Assembly (NCBI RefSeq): GCF_048403405.1
Contig: NZ_CP183129.1
DNA length: 64,000 bases
Direction: 5' to 3' (one strand)
Source: Escherichia coli
Lineage (GTDB): Bacteria > Pseudomonadota > Gammaproteobacteria > Enterobacterales > Enterobacteriaceae
Position 1 is the first letter of the stretch, and the number at the start of each line of letters is the position of its first letter. The notes beneath the pieces were generated by a model. That model did no database searches and was not told the DNA's origin. It saw nothing but the letters and a program-made list of their open reading frames with translations. This document shows, one piece after another, positions 2,382 through 57,872 of this stretch. The position numbers and the translations under genes are program-made.

Positions 2382-3143
2382 ATGTCGCTCGTTTGTTCTG
2401 TTATATTTATTCATCATGCCTTCAACGCTAACATTTTAGATAAAGATTACGCCTTCTCTGACGGCGAGATCCTGATGGTAGATAACGCTGTTCGTACGCA
2501 TTTTGAACCTTATGAGCGGCATTTCAAAGAAATCGGATTTAATGAAAATACCATTAAAAAATATCTACAATGCACTAACATCCAGACAGTGACGGTGCCT
2601 GTTCCTGCGAAGTTTTTACGTGCTTCAAATGTACCGACTGGATTGCTTAATGAAATGATTGCTTATCTCAACTCGGAAGAACGCAATCATCATAATTTTT
2701 CGGAACTTTTGCTTTTTTCTTGCCTATCTATTTTTGCCGCATGCAAAGGTTTCATTACACTATTAACTAACGGTGTGCTATCCGTTTCTGGGAAAGTGAG
2801 AAATATTGTCAACATGAAGCTGGCGCACCCATGGAAGCTGAAAGATATTTGTGACTGCCTGTACATCAGTGAAAGCCTGTTGAAGAAAAAACTTAAGCAA
2901 GAGCAAACGACATTCTCACAGATTCTTTTAGATGCCAGAATGCAGCACGCAAAAAATTTGATACGAGTAGAAGGTTCAGTTAATAAAATTGCCGAACAAT
3001 GTGGTTATGCCAGTACATCTTATTTTATTTATGCGTTCCGCAAACATTTCGGCAACAGTCCGAAGAGAGTTTCTAAGGAGTACCGTTGTCAAAGGCACAC
3101 GGGAATAAATACGGGCAACACGATGAATGCTTTAGCTATTTGA
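2382..3143 (+). CDS. ydeO: AraC-family acid-resistance transcriptional regulator YdeO
   Basis: 253-aa ORF with C-terminal AraC-type HTH (…YASTSYFIYAFRKHFGNSP…); synteny with safA. Confidence 0.9.
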   Translation: MSLVCSVIFIHHAFNANILDKDYAFSDGEILMVDNAVRTHFEPYERHFKEIGFNENTIKKYLQCTNIQTVTVPVPAKFLRASNVPTGLLNEMIAYLNSEERNHHNFSELLLFSCLSIFAACKGFITLLTNGVLSVSGKVRNIVNMKLAHPWKLKDICDCLYISESLLKKKLKQEQTTFSQILLDARMQHAKNLIRVEGSVNKIAEQCGYASTSYFIYAFRKHFGNSPKRVSKEYRCQRHTGINTGNTMNALAI

Positions 3144-3191
3144 TTATTTGCTAACGAGTAGTCAACCACACACGCTACGTAAGAATTAAAT

Positions 3192-3223
3192 GGGGCAGCC
3201 ATTTCCTGCCCCGCGTTGTTTTT
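3192..3223 (+). terminator. Rho-independent terminator after ydeO (ggggcag/ctgcccc stem followed by T-run)
   Basis: Hairpin and ttgttttt tract read directly. Confidence 0.6.
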
Positions 3224-3544
3224 AGGCGATATATTTATTGAAATAAATAAGTGACATTCATCACATATTTATGCATTTGCATAACCTGTTGCATGATTAT
3301 TTATGATCTCAATTCGGCATTTTATCAGTAAAATACAATAATTTATTAAATATCAATAGATTAGTTGTTTATCTGCGAGAAATTACTTAGTAGAATAGAA
3401 AGTAATGTCAACAGTTTATGGACTGTTATTTCTCTTTTTTTAGCTAAATCTGCTATCTCTTTATGTGACTAACTTCACTTACATCCACTTATTTCTCTTC
3501 GTAAAATTACTTTGGAATTAAGTACAATAAGAAGAGGAACATTT

Positions 3545-5227
3545 ATGAAGTCTGCATTAAAGAAAAGTGTCGTAAGTACCTCGATATCTTTGATACTGGC
3601 ATCTGGTATGGCTGCATTTGCTGCTCATGCGGCAGATGATGTAAAGCTGAAAGCAACCAAAACAAACGTCGCTTTCTCAGACTTTACGCCGACTGAATAC
3701 AGTACCAAAGGAAAGCCAAATATTATCGTACTGACCATGGATGATCTTGGTTATGGACAACTTCCTTTTGATAAGGGATCTTTTGACCCAAAAACTATGG
3801 AAAATCGTGAAGTTGTCGATACCTACAAAATAGGGATAGATAAAGCCATTGAAGCTGCGCAAAAATCAACGCCGACGCTCCTTTCATTAATGGATGAAGG
3901 CGTACGTTTTACTAACGGCTATGTGGCGCACGGTGTTTCCGGCCCCTCCCGTGCCGCAATAATGACCGGTCGAGCGCCCGCCCGCTTTGGTGTCTATTCC
4001 AATACCGATGCTCAGGATGGTATTCCGCTAACAGAAACTTTCCTGCCTGAATTATTCCAGAATCATGGTTATTACACTGCAGCAGTAGGTAAATGGCACT
4101 TGTCAAAAATCAGTAATGTGCCGGTACCGGAAGATAAACAAACGCGTGACTATCATGACAACTTCACCACATTTTCTGCGGAAGAATGGCAACCGCAAAA
4201 CCGTGGCTTTGATTACTTTATGGGATTCCACGCTGCAGGAACGGCATATTACAACTCCCCTTCACTGTTCAAAAACCGTGAACGCGTCCCCGCAAAAGGT
4301 TATATCAGCGATCAGTTAACCGATGAGGCAATTGGCGTTGTTGATCGTGCCAAAACACTTGACCAGCCTTTTATGCTTTACCTGGCTTATAATGCTCCGC
4401 ACCTGCCAAATGATAATCCTGCACCGGAGCAATATCAGAAGCAATTTAATACCGGTAGTCAAACAGCAGATAACTACTACGCTTCCGTTTATTCTGTTGA
4501 TCAGGGTGTAAAACGCATTCTCGAACAACTGAAGAAAAACGGACAGTATGACAATACTATTATTCTCTTTACCTCCGATAATGGTGCGGTTATCGATGGT
4601 CCTCTGCCGCTGAACGGGGCGCAAAAAGGCTATAAGAGTCAGACTTATCCTGGCGGTACTCACACCCCAATGTTTATGTGGTGGAAAGGAAAACTTCAAC
4701 CCGGTAATTATGACAAGCTGATTTCCGCAATGGATTTCTACCCGACAGCTCTTGATGCAGCCGATATCAGCATTCCAAAAGACCTTAAGCTGGATGGCGT
4801 TTCCTTGCTGCCGTGGTTGCAAGATAAGAAACAAGGCGAGCCACATAAAAATCTGACCTGGATAACCTCTTATTCTCACTGGTTTGACGAGGAAAATATT
4901 CCATTCTGGGATAATTACCACAAATTTGTCCGCCATCAGTCAGACGATTACCCGCATAACCCCAACACCGAGGACTTAAGCCAATTCTCTTATACGGTGA
5001 GAAATAACGATTATTCGCTTGTCTATACAGTAGAAAACAATCAGTTAGGTCTCTACAAACTGACGGATCTACAGCAAAAAGATAACCTTGCCGCCGCCAA
5101 TCCGCAGGTCGTTAAAGAGATGCAAGGCGTGGTAAGAGAGTTTATCGACAGCAGCCAGCCACCGCTTAGCGAAGTAAATCAGGAGAAGTTTAACAATATC
5201 AAGAAAGCACTAAGCGAAGCGAAATAA
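3545..5227 (+). CDS. ydeN: Periplasmic sulfatase YdeN (Ser/Cys-type sulfatase, signal peptide)
   Basis: 560 aa from the MKSALKK start; N-terminal signal peptide; sulfatase motifs (…VSGPSRAAIMTGR…); preceded by aagaggaa RBS. Confidence 0.9.
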   Translation: MKSALKKSVVSTSISLILASGMAAFAAHAADDVKLKATKTNVAFSDFTPTEYSTKGKPNIIVLTMDDLGYGQLPFDKGSFDPKTMENREVVDTYKIGIDKAIEAAQKSTPTLLSLMDEGVRFTNGYVAHGVSGPSRAAIMTGRAPARFGVYSNTDAQDGIPLTETFLPELFQNHGYYTAAVGKWHLSKISNVPVPEDKQTRDYHDNFTTFSAEEWQPQNRGFDYFMGFHAAGTAYYNSPSLFKNRERVPAKGYISDQLTDEAIGVVDRAKTLDQPFMLYLAYNAPHLPNDNPAPEQYQKQFNTGSQTADNYYASVYSVDQGVKRILEQLKKNGQYDNTIILFTSDNGAVIDGPLPLNGAQKGYKSQTYPGGTHTPMFMWWKGKLQPGNYDKLISAMDFYPTALDAADISIPKDLKLDGVSLLPWLQDKKQGEPHKNLTWITSYSHWFDEENIPFWDNYHKFVRHQSDDYPHNPNTEDLSQFSYTVRNNDYSLVYTVENNQLGLYKLTDLQQKDNLAAANPQVVKEMQGVVREFIDSSQPPLSEVNQEKFNNIKKALSEAK

Positions 5228-5239
5228 CTAAACCTTCAT

Positions 5240-5265
5240 GCGGCGGAATTTTCCGCCGCCTTATT
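5240..5265 (+). terminator. Hairpin between ydeN and ydeM (gcggcgga/tccgccgc stem)
   Basis: Perfect 8-bp stem with 4-nt loop followed by cttatt; lies in the 51-bp gap before ydeM. Confidence 0.45.
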
Positions 5266-5278
5266 GAGCGAGATAGCG

Positions 5279-6436
5279 ATGCACGTTACAGCCAAGCCCT
5301 CCAGTTTTCAATGTAATCTCAAATGTGATTACTGTTTTTACCTTGAAAAAGAGTCGCAGTTTACTCATGAAAAATGGATGGATGACAGCACTCTGAAAGA
5401 GTTCATCAAACAATATATCGCAGCGTCTGGCAATCAGGTCTATTTTACCTGGCAAGGCGGTGACCCCACTCTGGCTGGCCTGGATTTTTTCCGTAAAGTT
5501 ATTCACTATCAACAACGCTATGCAGGCCAAAAACGTATTTTTAATGCATTACAAACGAATGGCATTTTATTGAGTAATGAATGGTGTGCCTTTCTCAAAG
5601 AACATGAGTTTCTGGTTGGTATCTCGATCGATGGATCCCAGGAGCTACATGACCGTTACAGACGCAGTAATTCTGGTAACGGTACTTTTGCAAAAGTGAT
5701 AGCAGCCATCGAGCGTCTGAAATCATATCAAGTAGAGTTTAATACGTTAACCGTCATTAATAACGTCAATGTCCATTACCCTCTTGAGGTTTATCATTTT
5801 TTAAAATCTATCGGCAGTAAACATATGCAATTTATCGAATTGCTAGAAACCGGGACGCCGAATATTGATTTCAGTGGTCATAGTGAGAACACATTCCGTA
5901 TCATTGATTTTTCTGTGCCTCCTACGGCTTATGGCAAGTTTATGTCGACCATTTTTATGCAATGGGTTAAAAACGATGTGGGTGAAATTTTCATCCGTCA
6001 GTTTGAAAGCTTTGTCAGCCGTTTTTTGGGGAATGGGCATACCAGTTGTATTTTCCAGGAGTCCTGCAAGGATAATCTGGTTGTTGAAAGTAATGGAGAC
6101 ATTTACGAATGCGACCATTTTGTCTATCCACAGTACAAAATTGGAAACATTAATAAATCTGAACTTAAAACGATGAACAGTGTACAACTGACAGCGCAAA
6201 AAAAACGGATTTCAGCGAAATGTCAGCAATGTGCATATAAACCTATCTGCAATGGCGGTTGCCCTAAGCATCGTATTACTAAAGTAAACAATGAGACTGT
6301 TTCCTATTTTTGCGAAGGTTATAAAATCCTTTTTTCAACCATGGTACCTTATATGAACGCCATGGTGGAGTTAGCCAAGAACAGAGTACCGCTTTACCAC
6401 ATTATGGATGTTGCAAAACAAATGGAGAATAATTAA
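5279..6436 (+). CDS. ydeM: Anaerobic sulfatase-maturating enzyme homolog YdeM (radical SAM, SPASM domain)
   Basis: 385 aa from MHVTAK; CxxxCxxC-type radical-SAM cysteine cluster ([10 protein letters not shown]) and C-terminal Cys-rich SPASM region; adjacent to sulfatase ydeN. Confidence 0.88.
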
Positions 6437-6726
6437 TAACGCTCCTTCTTTGCTCCAGTCTTAGCCTCCGTCTTATGACCTTAACAAAGCACCCGACATA
6501 AATTCCTGTTGGGTGTTTCGTCATAATCATCTTCCCTTGCGAAAATTCTGGCTTACGTGGCATGCGTCAGGGCATTAGCAATACCCTTGATTATCAATAG
6601 CATAACCGTAACCATTGAAAATAAATAATTTCTTTATATTTCAAAATGTTAAATGACACTTAAATAAATTTCATCAGTAAATCATTGCCATAGATAATCA
6701 TTGGATGGCACAATCAATTTTCGCTA

Positions 6727-8412
6727 ATGATAACCATTCCCATTACGTTTCGTATGTTGATAGCAAAGTATCTCTGTCTGCTGAAGCCCTTTTGGCTGCG
6801 TAAGAATAATAAAACTTCAGTGCTGTTAATCATTATTATCCTCGCCATGATCCTTGGCGTGGTTAAAATTCAGGTCTGGTTAAACGACTGGAATAATGAT
6901 TTTTTCAATGCGCTAAGCCAGAAAGAAACCAATAAGCTTTGGCAGCTTGTCCTTTGGTTCCCTGCCCTGCTGGGGATCTTTGTATTAATATCCGTAAACA
7001 AAACATGGTTAATTAAACTGCTGACTATTCGCTGGCGCGAATGGTTAACAGATTACTACCTTAATCGGTGGTTTGCAGATAAAAACTACTACTTCACGCA
7101 GATCTACGGCGAGCATAAAAATACAGATAACCCTGACCAACGTATCGCTGAAGACATTCTCTTACTGATCAGCAAAACGCTCAGTCTTTCATTTGGCTTC
7201 ATCCAGTCACTTAGCATGCTGATCACCTTTACCGTTATTCTTTGGCAAAGCGCGGGTACGCTCTCATTCACTGTTGGTGGAACAGAATGGAATATCCAGG
7301 GGTATATGGTCTATACCGTTGTGCTCATTGTGATCGGTGGAACTTTATTTACTCATAAGGTTGGTAAACGTATTCGTCCGCTTAATGTGGAAAAGCAACG
7401 TAGCGAAGCGACATTTCGAACTAATCTTGTGCAGCATAATAAGCAGGCTGAACTGATTGCGCTAAGCAATGCTGAGTCTCTACAACGCCAGGAGTTGAGC
7501 GACAATTTTCATACCATTAAAGAGAACTGGCATCGTTTAATGAATCGTCAGCGCTGGCTTGATTACTGGCAGAATATTTATTCGCGCTCGCTTAGCGTTC
7601 TTCCCTACTTTCTGTTATTGCCACAGTTTATTAGCGGACAGATCAATCTGGGCGGACTGATGAAATCGCGCCAGGCATTTATGCTGGTATCGAACAATTT
7701 AAGCTGGTTTATTTATAAATATGACGAACTTGCTGAACTGGCTGCGGTTATCGATCGTTTGTATGAGTTCCATCAACTCACCGAACAGCGCCCTACGAAT
7801 AAGCCTAAAAATTGCCAACATGCGGTACAAGTGGCTGACGCGAGTATTCGTACTCCTGATAATAAGATCATATTAGAGAACCTGAACTTTCATGTTTCGC
7901 CAGGCAAATGGCTATTACTGAAAGGTTACTCTGGTGCGGGAAAAACCACACTGCTTAAAACATTATCCCACTGCTGGCCGTGGTTCAAAGGTGATATTTC
8001 TTCTCCTGCTGACAGTTGGTATGTGTCACAAACACCGTTAATCAAAACCGGCTTACTGAAAGAGATTATTTGTAAAGCACTTCCCCTGCCCGTAGACGAT
8101 AAATCGTTGAGCGAAATACTGCATCAGGTTGGTCTGGGGAAATTGGCTGCGCGTATTCATGACCACGATCGCTGGGGAGATATTCTTTCCAGCGGCGAAA
8201 AACAACGTATCGCCCTGGCACGATTAATTTTACGACGTCCGAAATGGATATTTCTTGACGAAACTACCTCTCATCTTGAGGAACAAGAGGCTATCCGCTT
8301 ACTGCGTTTAGTGCGTGAAAAACTACCCACAAGCGGCGTCATTATGGTTACACATCAACCCGGTGTCTGGAACCTGGCTGATGATATTTGTGACATTAGC
8401 GCGGTTTTATAA
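6727..8412 (+). CDS. yddA: ABC transporter YddA (fused permease/ATPase)
   Basis: 561 aa; N-terminal TM region and C-terminal ATPase with Walker A (GYSGAGKTT) and ABC signature (LSSGEKQR). Confidence 0.9.
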   Translation: MITIPITFRMLIAKYLCLLKPFWLRKNNKTSVLLIIIILAMILGVVKIQVWLNDWNNDFFNALSQKETNKLWQLVLWFPALLGIFVLISVNKTWLIKLLTIRWREWLTDYYLNRWFADKNYYFTQIYGEHKNTDNPDQRIAEDILLLISKTLSLSFGFIQSLSMLITFTVILWQSAGTLSFTVGGTEWNIQGYMVYTVVLIVIGGTLFTHKVGKRIRPLNVEKQRSEATFRTNLVQHNKQAELIALSNAESLQRQELSDNFHTIKENWHRLMNRQRWLDYWQNIYSRSLSVLPYFLLLPQFISGQINLGGLMKSRQAFMLVSNNLSWFIYKYDELAELAAVIDRLYEFHQLTEQRPTNKPKNCQHAVQVADASIRTPDNKIILENLNFHVSPGKWLLLKGYSGAGKTTLLKTLSHCWPWFKGDISSPADSWYVSQTPLIKTGLLKEIICKALPLPVDDKSLSEILHQVGLGKLAARIHDHDRWGDILSSGEKQRIALARLILRRPKWIFLDETTSHLEEQEAIRLLRLVREKLPTSGVIMVTHQPGVWNLADDICDISAVL

Positions 8413-52780: not shown

Positions 52781-53674
52781 ATGAAACCGCAGGTGTACCA
52801 CATCGATGCTTTTACCTCACAACCGTTTCGCGGCAATTCTGCCGGTGTTGTTTTCCCCGCCGATAATCTCAGTGAAGCGCAAATGCAGCTTATCGCCCGC
52901 GAATTAGGTCATTCCGAAACTGCTTTTCTGCTGCACAGCGACGACAGCGATGTGCGCATCCGCTACTTTACGCCAACAGTTGAAGTGCCGATTTGTGGTC
53001 ACGCGACGGTAGCAGCGCATTATGTACGTTCGAAGGTATTAGGTTTGGGAAATTGCACGGTCTGGCAAACATCGCTGGCAGGAAAACACCGCGTGACTAT
53101 AGAAAAGCAAAATGATGATTATCGTATTTCGCTGGAACAAGGTACTCCTGGCTTTGAGCCACCACTGACAGGTGAAACACGAGCGGCAATTATCAACGCG
53201 CTTCATCTCACTGAAGACGATATTCTGCCAGGCTTGCCAATTCAGGTGGCTACCACAGGACACTCAAAAGTGATGATTCCACTGAAGCCGGAAGTGGATA
53301 TCGACGCCCTTTCGCCTGACCTTAATGTGCTGACCGCTATCAGCAAACAGATTGGCTGCAATGGTTTCTTCCCGTTCCAGATCCGCCCTGGCAAAAACGA
53401 AACCGACGGTCGTATGTTCTCGCCTGCCATTGGTATTGTGGAAGATCCGGTGACCGGCAATGCCAATGGCCCGATGGGTGCATGGTTGGTACATCACAAC
53501 GTATTGCCCCACGATGGCAACGTGTTGCATGTTAAAGGCCATCAGGGGCGCGCATTGGGGCGTGACGGCGTGATTGAAGTGACGGTGACAATTCGCAATA
53601 ACCAACCGGAGAAAGTCACCATTTCTGGCACAGCGGTGATTTTGTTTCATGCCGAATGGGCAATTGAACTCTGA
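52781..53674 (+). CDS. yddE: PhzF-family isomerase YddE
   Basis: 297 aa. Confidence 0.88.
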   Translation: MKPQVYHIDAFTSQPFRGNSAGVVFPADNLSEAQMQLIARELGHSETAFLLHSDDSDVRIRYFTPTVEVPICGHATVAAHYVRSKVLGLGNCTVWQTSLAGKHRVTIEKQNDDYRISLEQGTPGFEPPLTGETRAAIINALHLTEDDILPGLPIQVATTGHSKVMIPLKPEVDIDALSPDLNVLTAISKQIGCNGFFPFQIRPGKNETDGRMFSPAIGIVEDPVTGNANGPMGAWLVHHNVLPHDGNVLHVKGHQGRALGRDGVIEVTVTIRNNQPEKVTISGTAVILFHAEWAIEL

Positions 53675-55895: not shown

Positions 55896-57872
55896 ATGCA
55901 GCTTAATCATATCGTTAAAAGTCTGCTAATAACGGGATTATTCACCACCAGTTCTTTACCTCTCCTCGCGGCGGAAGCTCCTAAAGACGCCACCGCAGCC
56001 ACGCAACAAGCAAACAATTTACTCTACAACCAGTTGCCGTTTGCCGATAACACTGACTTTACTGATGCCCATAAAGGTTTTATTGCCCCTATCCCTCAAG
56101 ACGTGATTAAGGGCGAACAAGGGAATGTTATCTGGGATCCACAACATTACGCTTTTATCAAAGAAGGCGATAAAGCCCCTGATACGGTGAATCCGAGTTT
56201 ATGGCGTCAGGCGCAACTGATAAATATCAGCGGGTTATTCGAAGTAACTGAAGGTGTCTATCAGATTCGCAATCTCGATCTATCAAATATGACCATCATT
56301 GAAGGCAAAGAGGGTATTACCGTCGTTGATCCCCTTGTTTCAGCAGAAACAGCCAAAGTGGGTATGGATCTCTATTACAAAAATCGCGGCAAAAAACCGG
56401 TAGTGGCGGTTATCTATACACACAGTCATGTCGATCACTACGGTGGTGTTCGTGGCGTAATTGATGAAGCTGACGTTAAATCAGGCAAAGTTAAAATCTA
56501 TGCGCCAGCCGGATTTTTGGAGGAAGCCGTTTCCGAAAACATCATGGCTGGCAATGTTATGAGCCGACGAGCCAGTTATATGTATGGCAACTTATTGAAA
56601 CCTGATGTTAAAGGCCAGGTGGGGGCTGGACTGGGAACGACTACTTCAGCAGGAACAGTCACGTTGATTGCTCCTACTAACTACATCACCAAAACCGGAC
56701 AAAAAGAAACTATTGACGGGTTGACTTATGATTTCCTGATGGCGCCAGGTTCTGAAGCGCCTTCTGAAATGCTGTGGTTTATTGAAGAAAAGAAACTGAT
56801 CGAAACCGCTGAAGATGTCACGCACACCCTTCATAACACCTATTCGCTGCGTGGGGCTAAAATTCGCCAACCGCTGCCGTGGTCAAAATATATTAATGAA
56901 GCTCTCAATTTGTGGGGTGATAAAGCCGAGATTATTCTCGCTCAACATCACTGGCCAACCTGGGGCAACGATAACGTGGTCAAACTGCTTAAAAGCCAGC
57001 GTGATTTGTATCGTTACATCAATGATCAAACTCTGCGCATGGCTAATCAAGGGATGACCCGTGATGAAATTGCCGCAAACTTTAAACTGCCCTCTTCACT
57101 GGCTAACACCTGGGCGAATCGCGGCTATTACGGTTCGGTAAGTCATGACGTGAAAGCAACTTACGTGCTTTATCTCGGCTGGTTTGATGGTAACCCCGCG
57201 ACGCTTGATGAACTGCCGCCAGAAGAAGGCGCAAAAAAATTCGTCGAGTATATGGGCGGTGCTGATGCCATTTTACAGAAAGCCAAACAGGATTATGACC
57301 AGGGTAATTTCCGCTGGGTTGCCCAAGTTGTTAGTAAGGTGGTGTTTGCCGATCCAAACAACCAGGCAGCGAGAGATCTGGAAGCTGATGCGCTTGAGCA
57401 GTTAGGCTATCAGGCTGAATCTGGGCCGTGGCGTAATTTCTATCTCACTGGTGCACAGGAATTGCGTAATGGCGTACAAAAATTACCAACACCAAATACT
57501 GCCAGCCCAGACACCGTGCGTGCGATGACGCCGGAGATGTTCTTTGATTATCTTGCCGTCCATATTAATGGTGAGAAAGCGGCAGATGCCAAAACCGTGT
57601 TGAATTTCGATTTTGGTGAAGATGGCGGCACCTATAAAGTGGAGCTTGAAAATGGTGTTCTCAATCATACCGCTGGTGTAGAGGCTTCGGATGCTGATGC
57701 CACTATCACTCTGTCTCGTGATGTATTGAACAAAATTGTACTGAAAGAAGAGACGCTGAAAGAAGCCACGGCCAAAGGAGATGTCAAAATTACTGGCAAT
57801 GAGGAAAAACTCAACGAGCTGTTAGGTTATATGGATAATTTTGAATTTTGGTTCAATATAGTGACACCATAA
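55896..57872 (+). CDS. Periplasmic alkyl/aryl sulfatase (metallo-beta-lactamase fold, SdsA1/YjcS-like)
   Basis: 658 aa; signal peptide; metallo-beta-lactamase HxHxDH motif (YTHSHVDHYGG); C-terminal SCP2-like region. Confidence 0.8.
   Translation: MQLNHIVKSLLITGLFTTSSLPLLAAEAPKDATAATQQANNLLYNQLPFADNTDFTDAHKGFIAPIPQDVIKGEQGNVIWDPQHYAFIKEGDKAPDTVNPSLWRQAQLINISGLFEVTEGVYQIRNLDLSNMTIIEGKEGITVVDPLVSAETAKVGMDLYYKNRGKKPVVAVIYTHSHVDHYGGVRGVIDEADVKSGKVKIYAPAGFLEEAVSENIMAGNVMSRRASYMYGNLLKPDVKGQVGAGLGTTTSAGTVTLIAPTNYITKTGQKETIDGLTYDFLMAPGSEAPSEMLWFIEEKKLIETAEDVTHTLHNTYSLRGAKIRQPLPWSKYINEALNLWGDKAEIILAQHHWPTWGNDNVVKLLKSQRDLYRYINDQTLRMANQGMTRDEIAANFKLPSSLANTWANRGYYGSVSHDVKATYVLYLGWFDGNPATLDELPPEEGAKKFVEYMGGADAILQKAKQDYDQGNFRWVAQVVSKVVFADPNNQAARDLEADALEQLGYQAESGPWRNFYLTGAQELRNGVQKLPTPNTASPDTVRAMTPEMFFDYLAVHINGEKAADAKTVLNFDFGEDGGTYKVELENGVLNHTAGVEASDADATITLSRDVLNKIVLKEETLKEATAKGDVKITGNEEKLNELLGYMDNFEFWFNIVTP

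Follow-up and report, generated by a model that had tools for sequence, protein, structure and literature searches.

The locus considered here raises the question of how a bacterium might make much of a sulfatase and little of the enzyme that activates it when the two genes lie one behind the other on the same strand. In a stretch of 64,000 nt from Escherichia coli (contig NZ_CP183129.1; the whole stretch is called the window below), the sulfatase gene ydeN (3545..5227, + strand) is followed by ydeM (5279..6436, + strand), which is predicted to encode a sulfatase maturase. The intergenic gap defined by the coordinates of the two genes (5228..5278, + strand) contains a stem-loop at 5240..5259 (+ strand). 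An earlier note on this sequence had placed a perfect GC hairpin at 5240..5265 in a 51-bp gap and had suggested that it could attenuate maturase expression. The gap is indeed exactly 51 nt long and the hairpin is present, but it ends at 5259, with positions 5260-5265 (CTTATT) belonging to its tail. The reading favoured here, with a probability of roughly 58%, is that the stem-loop acts as a selected, leaky polarity element. It would fix where an abundant mRNA carrying ydeN alone comes to its 3' end, through partial termination and/or a block to exonucleases, so that the maturase would be made from a minority of the transcripts.

Structure of the intercistronic stem-loop

The stem-loop, which was delimited by its inverted repeat, by folding and by covariation, starts 12 nt past the ydeN stop codon. 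At the DNA level, it forms a perfect inverted repeat with 9-nt arms (5240-5248 and 5251-5259). The RNA folds into an 8-bp stem with seven G-C pairs and an AUUU loop, composed of the 5' arm at 5240-5247, the loop at 5248-5251 and the 3' arm at 5252-5259. Folding energies of -15.5 kcal/mol were obtained for the isolated stem-loop and of -18 kcal/mol for the 51-nt gap (z = -3.1, 200 shuffles), and the stem-loop was still formed when a context of 111 nt was folded. The 5' arm (5240-5247) reads GCGGCGGA. The stem is followed by a U-rich tail, CTTATTGA (5260..5267, + strand), which by its sequence is weak, with C in the first position and four T in 8 nt.

The hairpin motif has one match in the window, and the median number of sites in E. 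coli genomes is likewise one. A covariance search of positions 3000-7000 against Rfam, performed permissively with E values of up to 5, gave no match at the gap and two chance-level matches elsewhere. The gap is present with at least 95% identity in 5336 of 5426 E. coli genomes; it is identical in 1640 E. coli records and carries one or two mismatches in 3700. The sole common polymorphism in the gap affects the loop base at 5248, which is A in this strain and T in K-12 and the B2-type strains checked, and no stem changes were seen among the E. coli strains inspected. Taken alone, the E. coli hairpin exceeds chance only weakly. No earlier description of a ydeN-ydeM hairpin was found in the searchable literature.

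Two further candidate roles were discarded. Function as a terminator on the minus strand was rejected, as the respective tail, ATGAAGGT, has two T in 8 nt. Action of the 3' arm as an anti-Shine-Dalgarno sequence, which is conceivable in Leminorella, was dropped because the complementary sequence is absent in E. coli.

Conservation across orthologous loci

Conservation of the hairpin was analysed in 21 orthologous loci, comprising that of E. coli, nine from a scan of reference genomes and 11 from contigs encoding YdeM homologs. The set includes Escherichia sp., E. albertii, Citrobacter werkmanii, Dryocola, Mixta, Shimwellia, Salmonella, Leminorella, Budvicia, two Yersinia species, an Enterobacteriaceae metagenome-assembled genome (MAG), Proteus, Providencia, Aeromonas, Photobacterium, Vibrio mimicus and Psychromonas as well as the Betaproteobacteria Iodobacter and Jeongeupia. 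It thus spans Enterobacterales, Vibrionales, Aeromonas, Psychromonas and two Betaproteobacteria.

A dominant single stem-loop of 8-14 bp (-11.6 to -22.6 kcal/mol) was found in all 21 gaps, which are 42-89 nt long. The stem starts 4-20 nt past the sulfatase stop codon in 19 of the loci (full range 4-42 nt). In most cases (about 15 of 21), it ends 18-23 nt 5' of the ATG of the maturase gene, whose Shine-Dalgarno (SD) sequence follows directly; over all 21 loci, the distance between stem and ATG is 6-40 nt. The arms vary and yet match each other, as in the pairs GGCAGG/CCTGCC, GGCGGG/CCCGCC, GGCAAG/CTTGCC and GGTAGG/CCTACC, and about 15 distinct versions of the stem sequence exist. Conservation of the loop and flank sequences among the orthologs was not found; pairing alone is kept.

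Covariation was counted on an unsupervised MAFFT alignment for a 12-pair helix and compared with 500 shuffles. Paired cells amounted to 80% (shuffled: 68 +/- 1.6%), all 12 pairs were changed on both sides (shuffled: 8.0 +/- 1.2), and 42 cells carried double changes (shuffled: 16.3 +/- 3.4). None of the 500 shuffles attained any of these values, although statistics based on shuffling are inflated by the relatedness of the sequences. When the partner column was slid by 1-3 positions, pairing was 41-56%. A covariance model built from the MAFFT alignment recovered the sulfatase-maturase gap as the sole match per locus in 255 kb searched. A second alignment, obtained from the covariance-model search (A2), holds four mirror-strand matches, and its pair counts were not used as primary evidence.

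A paralogous cassette on the Klebsiella pneumoniae plasmid NZ_CP092401.1, in which a sulfatase gene is followed by the gene for a maturase of 45% identity, served as negative control. Its 48-nt gap (L034, 2432-2479) is unstructured (-4 kcal/mol, z = -0.16). Because compensating changes occur across the orthologs and the Klebsiella paralog is free of a hairpin, selection, to judge from these comparisons, acts on the stem as an RNA structure, and the stem is a property of this cassette. Across species, its pairing is clearly more than would be expected by chance.

The genes flanking the cassette differ from genus to genus, so the two genes and the hairpin appear to move as one unit. In Providencia alcalifaciens and Proteus sp. 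NMG38-2, a ydeNM-type cassette with a hairpin is found on large plasmids, and the plasmid-type cassettes (L021, L022) adjoin Rep3, resolvase and RelB/YafQ genes. Such settings fit the idea that the pair spreads horizontally.

The U-tract is far less conserved than the stem. Using a threshold of at least five T in the 8 nt directly after the stem, a U-tract was assigned to eight of the 21 hairpins, including those of Shimwellia (TATTTTTT), Salmonella (TAATTTTT) and Citrobacter (TTAATTTT); ortholog tails often read TTATTTT or TAATTTTT.

Some loci were left out of the ortholog count. Contig JARKOR010000108.1 (L002), binned as part of a 'Candidatus Nanosynbacter' MAG, matches ydeN-ydeM of E. coli, hairpin included, with 99% identity; it was treated as an E. 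coli contaminant contig and almost certainly reflects bin contamination. Remoter maturase homologs (L012-L014, L025), as well as plasmid paralogs of Serratia, Pasteurella, Vibrio diabolicus and Salmonella, were not comparable, with another gene order or no adjacent sulfatase gene. Among the paralogs, that of Vibrio diabolicus has the maturase gene first, and that of Serratia carries a gene for a GntR-family regulator and DUF202 genes between the pair. Two pattern scans of metagenome contigs for further cassettes were performed, of which the first was empty and the second gave two AslB-like maturases without an upstream SGPSR sulfatase.

Published RNA levels and 3' ends

Mean normalised counts from in-gut RNA-seq of a derepressed strain were 5399 for ydeN and 371.5 for ydeM (PMC10878103, Table S3), compared with 92 and 22, respectively, in the control strain (PMC10878103). 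The earlier note had named equal transcript levels on both sides of the hairpin as evidence against attenuation. Such equality was not seen: computed per nucleotide from PMC10878103, ydeN RNA exceeds ydeM RNA about 10-fold, and the ratio of ydeM to ydeN on induction is about 0.096, on the assumption that the counts, which are averages from one study, were not length-normalised. The same work (PMC10878103) used a strain from which araC and other genes are missing, and in it ydeM was derepressed together with ydeN. In several other studies, ydeN was flagged as differentially expressed by itself.

A bicyclomycin-sensitive and hence Rho-dependent site has been mapped inside K-12 ydeM (position 1579674, - strand; PMC7815308, supplementary file 2) and may contribute to the low level of ydeM RNA. 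Where a terminator lies less than about 17-30 nt from a stop codon, the ribosome terminating there represses it (Li et al. 2016, PMC4824070), and the ydeNM-type hairpins fall in the stop-proximal zone described there.

Proposed mechanism

According to the favoured reading, ydeN and ydeM would form a two-gene operon with one promoter, encoding a periplasmic Ser-type sulfatase and a cytoplasmic radical-SAM maturase that would convert Ser132 of the sulfatase to formylglycine. The action of YdeM on YdeN is a presumed partnership. An abundant mRNA covering ydeN alone would have its 3' end at the stem-loop, and ydeM would be carried by roughly a tenth of the transcripts.

For ydeM to be transcribed at all, the hairpin has to be passed. 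A scan of the + strand revealed no promoter-like sites in the interval 5100-5278. Moreover, the SD-like stretch of ydeM, GAGCGAGA (5266..5273, + strand), which is weak as judged by sequence inspection, lies right behind the hairpin, so that a promoter cannot fit between the hairpin and the ATG. Since there is no room for a promoter before the ATG, yet ydeM is conserved and co-derepressed with ydeN, the hairpin should be leaky and at most an incomplete terminator.

The step-down in RNA could be produced in two ways. Partial intrinsic termination would dominate where the tail is U-rich (Shimwellia, Mixta, Salmonella, Citrobacter) and would be damped by the ribosome that ends ydeN 4-20 nt upstream. 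In the second route, Rho termination or cleavage within a poorly translated segment of ydeM would come first, and the stem would then stop 3'-to-5' exonucleases. This route is probably the main one in E. coli, because the U-tract is degraded there, and the proportions of the two would vary by species. In either case, the outcome would be a high ratio of the substrate enzyme to its catalytic maturase.

In a variant, regarded as possible and distinctly less probable, the stem-loop would be a translation-coupled conditional terminator and an integral part of the co-transferred cassette. A ribosome trailing the polymerase would mask the 5' arm and permit read-through, and untranslated or uncoupled ydeN transcripts would be terminated or trimmed at the hairpin. 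If this were true, maturase synthesis would be confined to messages on which the sulfatase is being translated, at a fixed low ratio to it.

Evaluation of alternative explanations

Together with the reservations attached above to the shuffle statistics and the RNA ratio, several observations weigh against a polarity element. The E. coli hairpin has the stem and loop of an intrinsic terminator (at least 5 bp, GC-rich; loop of 3-8 nt), but the terminator scan made no call at 5240-5259, whose tail CTTATTGA lies under the U-tract threshold. Thirteen of the 21 hairpins, including those of E. coli, Escherichia sp. and E. albertii, fail this threshold. The gene-level counts in PMC10878103 do not place the step at the hairpin, and the step-down is equally explicable by differential mRNA stability or by Rho termination within ydeM. 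Among the E. coli 3' ends that could be searched (supplements to PMC7815308 and PMC12207403), none is entered for the hairpin; because ydeN is barely expressed and the operon nearly silent under the conditions used, the missing end is weak evidence. Finally, nearly all same-strand gaps of more than 50 nt in the window carry a hairpin (-11 to -19 kcal/mol). Of the proposal that the hairpin attenuates maturase expression, the lowering is therefore supported, by covariation in 21 of 21 loci and the approximately 10-fold step-down, whereas termination as such is a candidate mechanism only, given the poor U-tract, the failed scan and the lack of a listed 3' end; the E. coli tail would suit no more than a weak terminator.

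Stem-loops inside operons or at gene ends are the rule in this window. Hairpins of -17 to -19 kcal/mol are found, for instance, in the gaps 15425-15579 and 52704-52781 and in others, examples being gadB-gadC and narI-yddE. Since gene-end hairpins are so common, the ydeN-ydeM structure could persist for generic reasons. It would then be a gene-end structure that does not specifically affect the ratio, and low ydeM RNA would result from weak translation, Rho activity in ydeM and faster decay. The comparable hairpins in the other gaps, the poor E. coli U-tract, the Rho-dependent site and the weak ydeM SD sequence would all suit this explanation, which is nevertheless held to be unlikely. It leaves unexplained the compensatory changes, with about 15 stem versions in two proteobacterial classes and unrelated contexts, and the absence of a hairpin from the paralogous Klebsiella cassette with its near-equal gap length (48 nt). 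Both argue for selection on this particular stem and against chance persistence. A role in translation is rather improbable. In this scenario, the hairpin, located 6-12 nt 5' of the SD sequence, would shape the ribosome-binding site of ydeM or insulate it, block re-initiation or keep the SD sequence unpaired, and maturase translation would be set independently. The spacing between stem end and ATG is steadier (18-23 nt at about 15 of the 21 loci) than that from the stop codon to the stem (4-42 nt), and every ortholog has its own SD sequence right behind the hairpin tail, as such a role would predict. However, the SD sequence never lies within the stem, inspection of the gaps showed no conserved anti-SD pairing, and a purely translational element does not account for an approximately 10-fold difference in RNA.

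Regulation by a ligand, a protein or a small RNA (in response to, e.g., oxygen, sulfate or S-adenosylmethionine) through a choice between terminator and antiterminator is very unlikely. Conditional read-through would make sense for a maturase that works under anaerobic conditions only, and the stem lies within the zone of ribosome-modulated termination (PMC4824070), but the gaps of 42-89 nt hold one simple stem-loop, neither an alternative conserved pairing nor a leader peptide was found in them, a match in Rfam is absent, and loop and flanks are unconserved. The repeat could also act as DNA, either as an operator bound by a dimeric regulator or as a site of recombination or cassette junction, given that it is perfect at the DNA level and that the cassette is mobile, with plasmid-borne cases. 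This idea is given hardly any credence, because pairing kept without sequence conservation is the signature of an RNA structure and the hairpin is positioned inside the cassette and not at its borders.

The sulfatase and the maturase

YdeN (560 aa) is assigned to the S1 (formylglycine-dependent) sulfatases by its RefSeq annotation and by a full-length match to the Pfam family Sulfatase (PF00884; E = 1.3e-70, profile positions 1-301). In its translation, the active-site signature SGPSR (3938..3952, + strand) reads S132-G-P-S-R-AAIMTGR, with the codon for Ser132 at 3938-3940. YdeN had been described as a 'Ser/Cys-type' sulfatase; the family assignment holds, and because Ser occupies the first position of the (C/S)-x-P-x-R signature, the enzyme is specifically of the Ser type, with Ser132 as the predicted formylglycine residue. 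The SGPSR motif is invariant in the 21 orthologous sulfatases, all of which are Ser-type. The closest solved structures are those of S1_19 carrageenan sulfatases (E = 3e-52). The hydrophobic N-terminus, MKSALKKSVVSTSISLILASGMAAFAAHA-ADD, resembles a Sec signal, as judged by eye only. Within Escherichia, the ratio of nonsynonymous to synonymous substitution rates (dN/dS) of ydeN is 0.013-0.025, indicating strong purifying selection.

YdeM (385 aa) is assigned by its sequence to the anaerobic sulfatase-maturating enzymes with radical-SAM and SPASM domains. It scored 498.3 bits against TIGR03942 (curated equivalog cutoff 349.45), matched Radical_SAM and SPASM in Pfam, and aligned over 356 residues with the solved structure of anSMEcpe (Protein Data Bank (PDB) entry 4K36; E = 2.5e-61). 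The translation contains the CX3CX2C radical-SAM cluster motif as CNLKCDYC (5312..5335, + strand), whose cysteines C12, C16 and C19 are kept in all 21 orthologs and align with those of 4K36. The same applies to eight auxiliary cysteines (C257, C263, C278, C315, C318, C324, C328 and C345; 21/21 orthologs), the core of which forms the SPASM motif CX2CX5CX3C (6221..6262, + strand), likewise aligned with the 4K36 cysteines. A cognate-type sulfatase gene is adjacent to the maturase gene in all 21 loci (51 nt upstream of ydeM in E. coli), and ydeM is under strong purifying selection within Escherichia (dN/dS 0.04-0.06). Pfam, TIGR03942, the cysteines and the annotation thus agree with the earlier view of ydeN and ydeM as a classic sulfatase-maturase pair.

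In the strain analysed, YdeM carries the substitutions E62D, N99S and P120S (codons 5462-5464, 5573-5575 and 5636-5638). K-12, the majority E. coli allele and the 20 other orthologs all have E62 and P120. The first substitution, a conservative one, changes the S-adenosylmethionine-binding motif, which is GGE in all of these, to GGD. An exact 41-mer spanning codon 62 was detected in 5 of 5426 E. coli genomes, corresponding to a rare allele of this lineage. The maturase may thus be weakened in the lineage of this strain. In E. coli strain W137 (NZ_CP163067.1), IS2 splits ydeM into two annotated pieces, so the maturase is dispensable in at least some isolates. Sulfatase maturation in E. coli was reportedly not abolished by deletion of aslB and ydeM (Benjdia et al. 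2007).

Genomic context

A 4-kb region containing both genes is 100% identical to the corresponding region of E. coli strain 4621, where the genes are annotated as ydeN and ydeM, and this stretch was found in 5392 of 5426 complete E. coli genomes. The two genes are thus a core-genome pair of E. coli that was named before now. The annotated order is ydeP-safA-ydeO-ydeN-ydeM-yddA-yddB, with every gene on the + strand. A terminator-like hairpin 3' of ydeO (3191..3213, + strand), matched by the terminator scan on both strands, marks an upstream boundary, so that ydeN would open a separate unit after a gap of 401 nt. On inspection of the sequence, ydeN has a strong SD sequence, GAGGA, 6 nt 5' of its ATG (3534..3538, + strand).

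There is no obvious intrinsic terminator on the + strand 3' of ydeM. The 3' end of the gene is overlapped by a minus-strand open reading frame of 40 codons (6402-6524), annotated as hypothetical, which we take to be possibly the 'protein YneP' listed in the same 4-kb region of other strains. A hairpin of -17 kcal/mol (6486-6523) lies within this reading frame.

The window was also said to carry a second, unrelated sulfatase. The gene at 55896-57872, 50 kb from ydeNM, does encode an alkyl sulfatase of the metallo-beta-lactamase (MBL) fold, which differs from that of YdeN. In Shimwellia blattae, a gene with the domain set of this alkyl sulfatase (L018, 4766-6742) is located immediately downstream of the ydeNM-like pair, a hint that the two types of sulfatase may be functionally connected.

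Implications

YdeN and YdeM constitute a poorly understood sulfatase system of the core genome. Its derepression has been seen in the gut when araC is deleted, and an action on mucin-type sulfated glycans has been suggested. A Ser-type sulfatase is useless without its maturase, which is catalytic and needed in far smaller amounts. An element that fixes the ratio of the two would account for transcriptome studies that catch ydeN and miss ydeM, and mutations in the stem would offer a concrete handle for the expression of active YdeN. If the favoured reading is true, the locus would provide a covariation-supported case of an operon-internal hairpin that moves between genomes with the genes it tunes. 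The gene pair itself is known, and the conserved hairpin is a new instance of a well-known and ordinary kind of operon-internal control that leaves existing concepts unchanged.

Comparison with known systems

As in the atsB-atsA system of Klebsiella pneumoniae and the anSME family in general, a Ser-type S1 sulfatase is paired in ydeNM with a radical-SAM/SPASM maturase in one predicted operon, and YdeM has all three sets of cluster-binding cysteines seen in anSMEcpe (4K36). Unlike in the Klebsiella atsBA operon, where the maturase gene comes first, the sulfatase gene leads in ydeNM.

The stems of ydeNM resemble those of Rho-independent terminators in being GC-rich, with 8-12 bp and a loop of 3-8 nt, and in following right after a stop codon. 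They differ from such terminators in that the Escherichia versions have no adequate U-tract and that transcription must pass them to reach ydeM. Within the window, the gap between the co-directional genes gadB and gadC has, like that between ydeN and ydeM, a strong hairpin (-19.1 kcal/mol), which serves here only to illustrate how common such structures are.

Close parallels are the repetitive extragenic palindromic (REP) hairpins of malE-malF, the Rhodobacter puf operon and partial terminators inside operons, with which ydeNM shares a stable hairpin 3' of the more abundant cistron. As with other intra-operon polarity hairpins, ydeM relies on read-through, and RNA is about 10-fold more abundant upstream; the part played by the spacing from the stop codon agrees with Li et al. 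2016 (PMC4824070). In contrast to REP sequences and bacterial interspersed mosaic elements (BIMEs), the ydeNM hairpin is single-copy per genome. It also differs from the hairpins of malE-malF and puf in that its stem is specific to the cassette and appears to have travelled with its genes through Gamma- and Betaproteobacteria.

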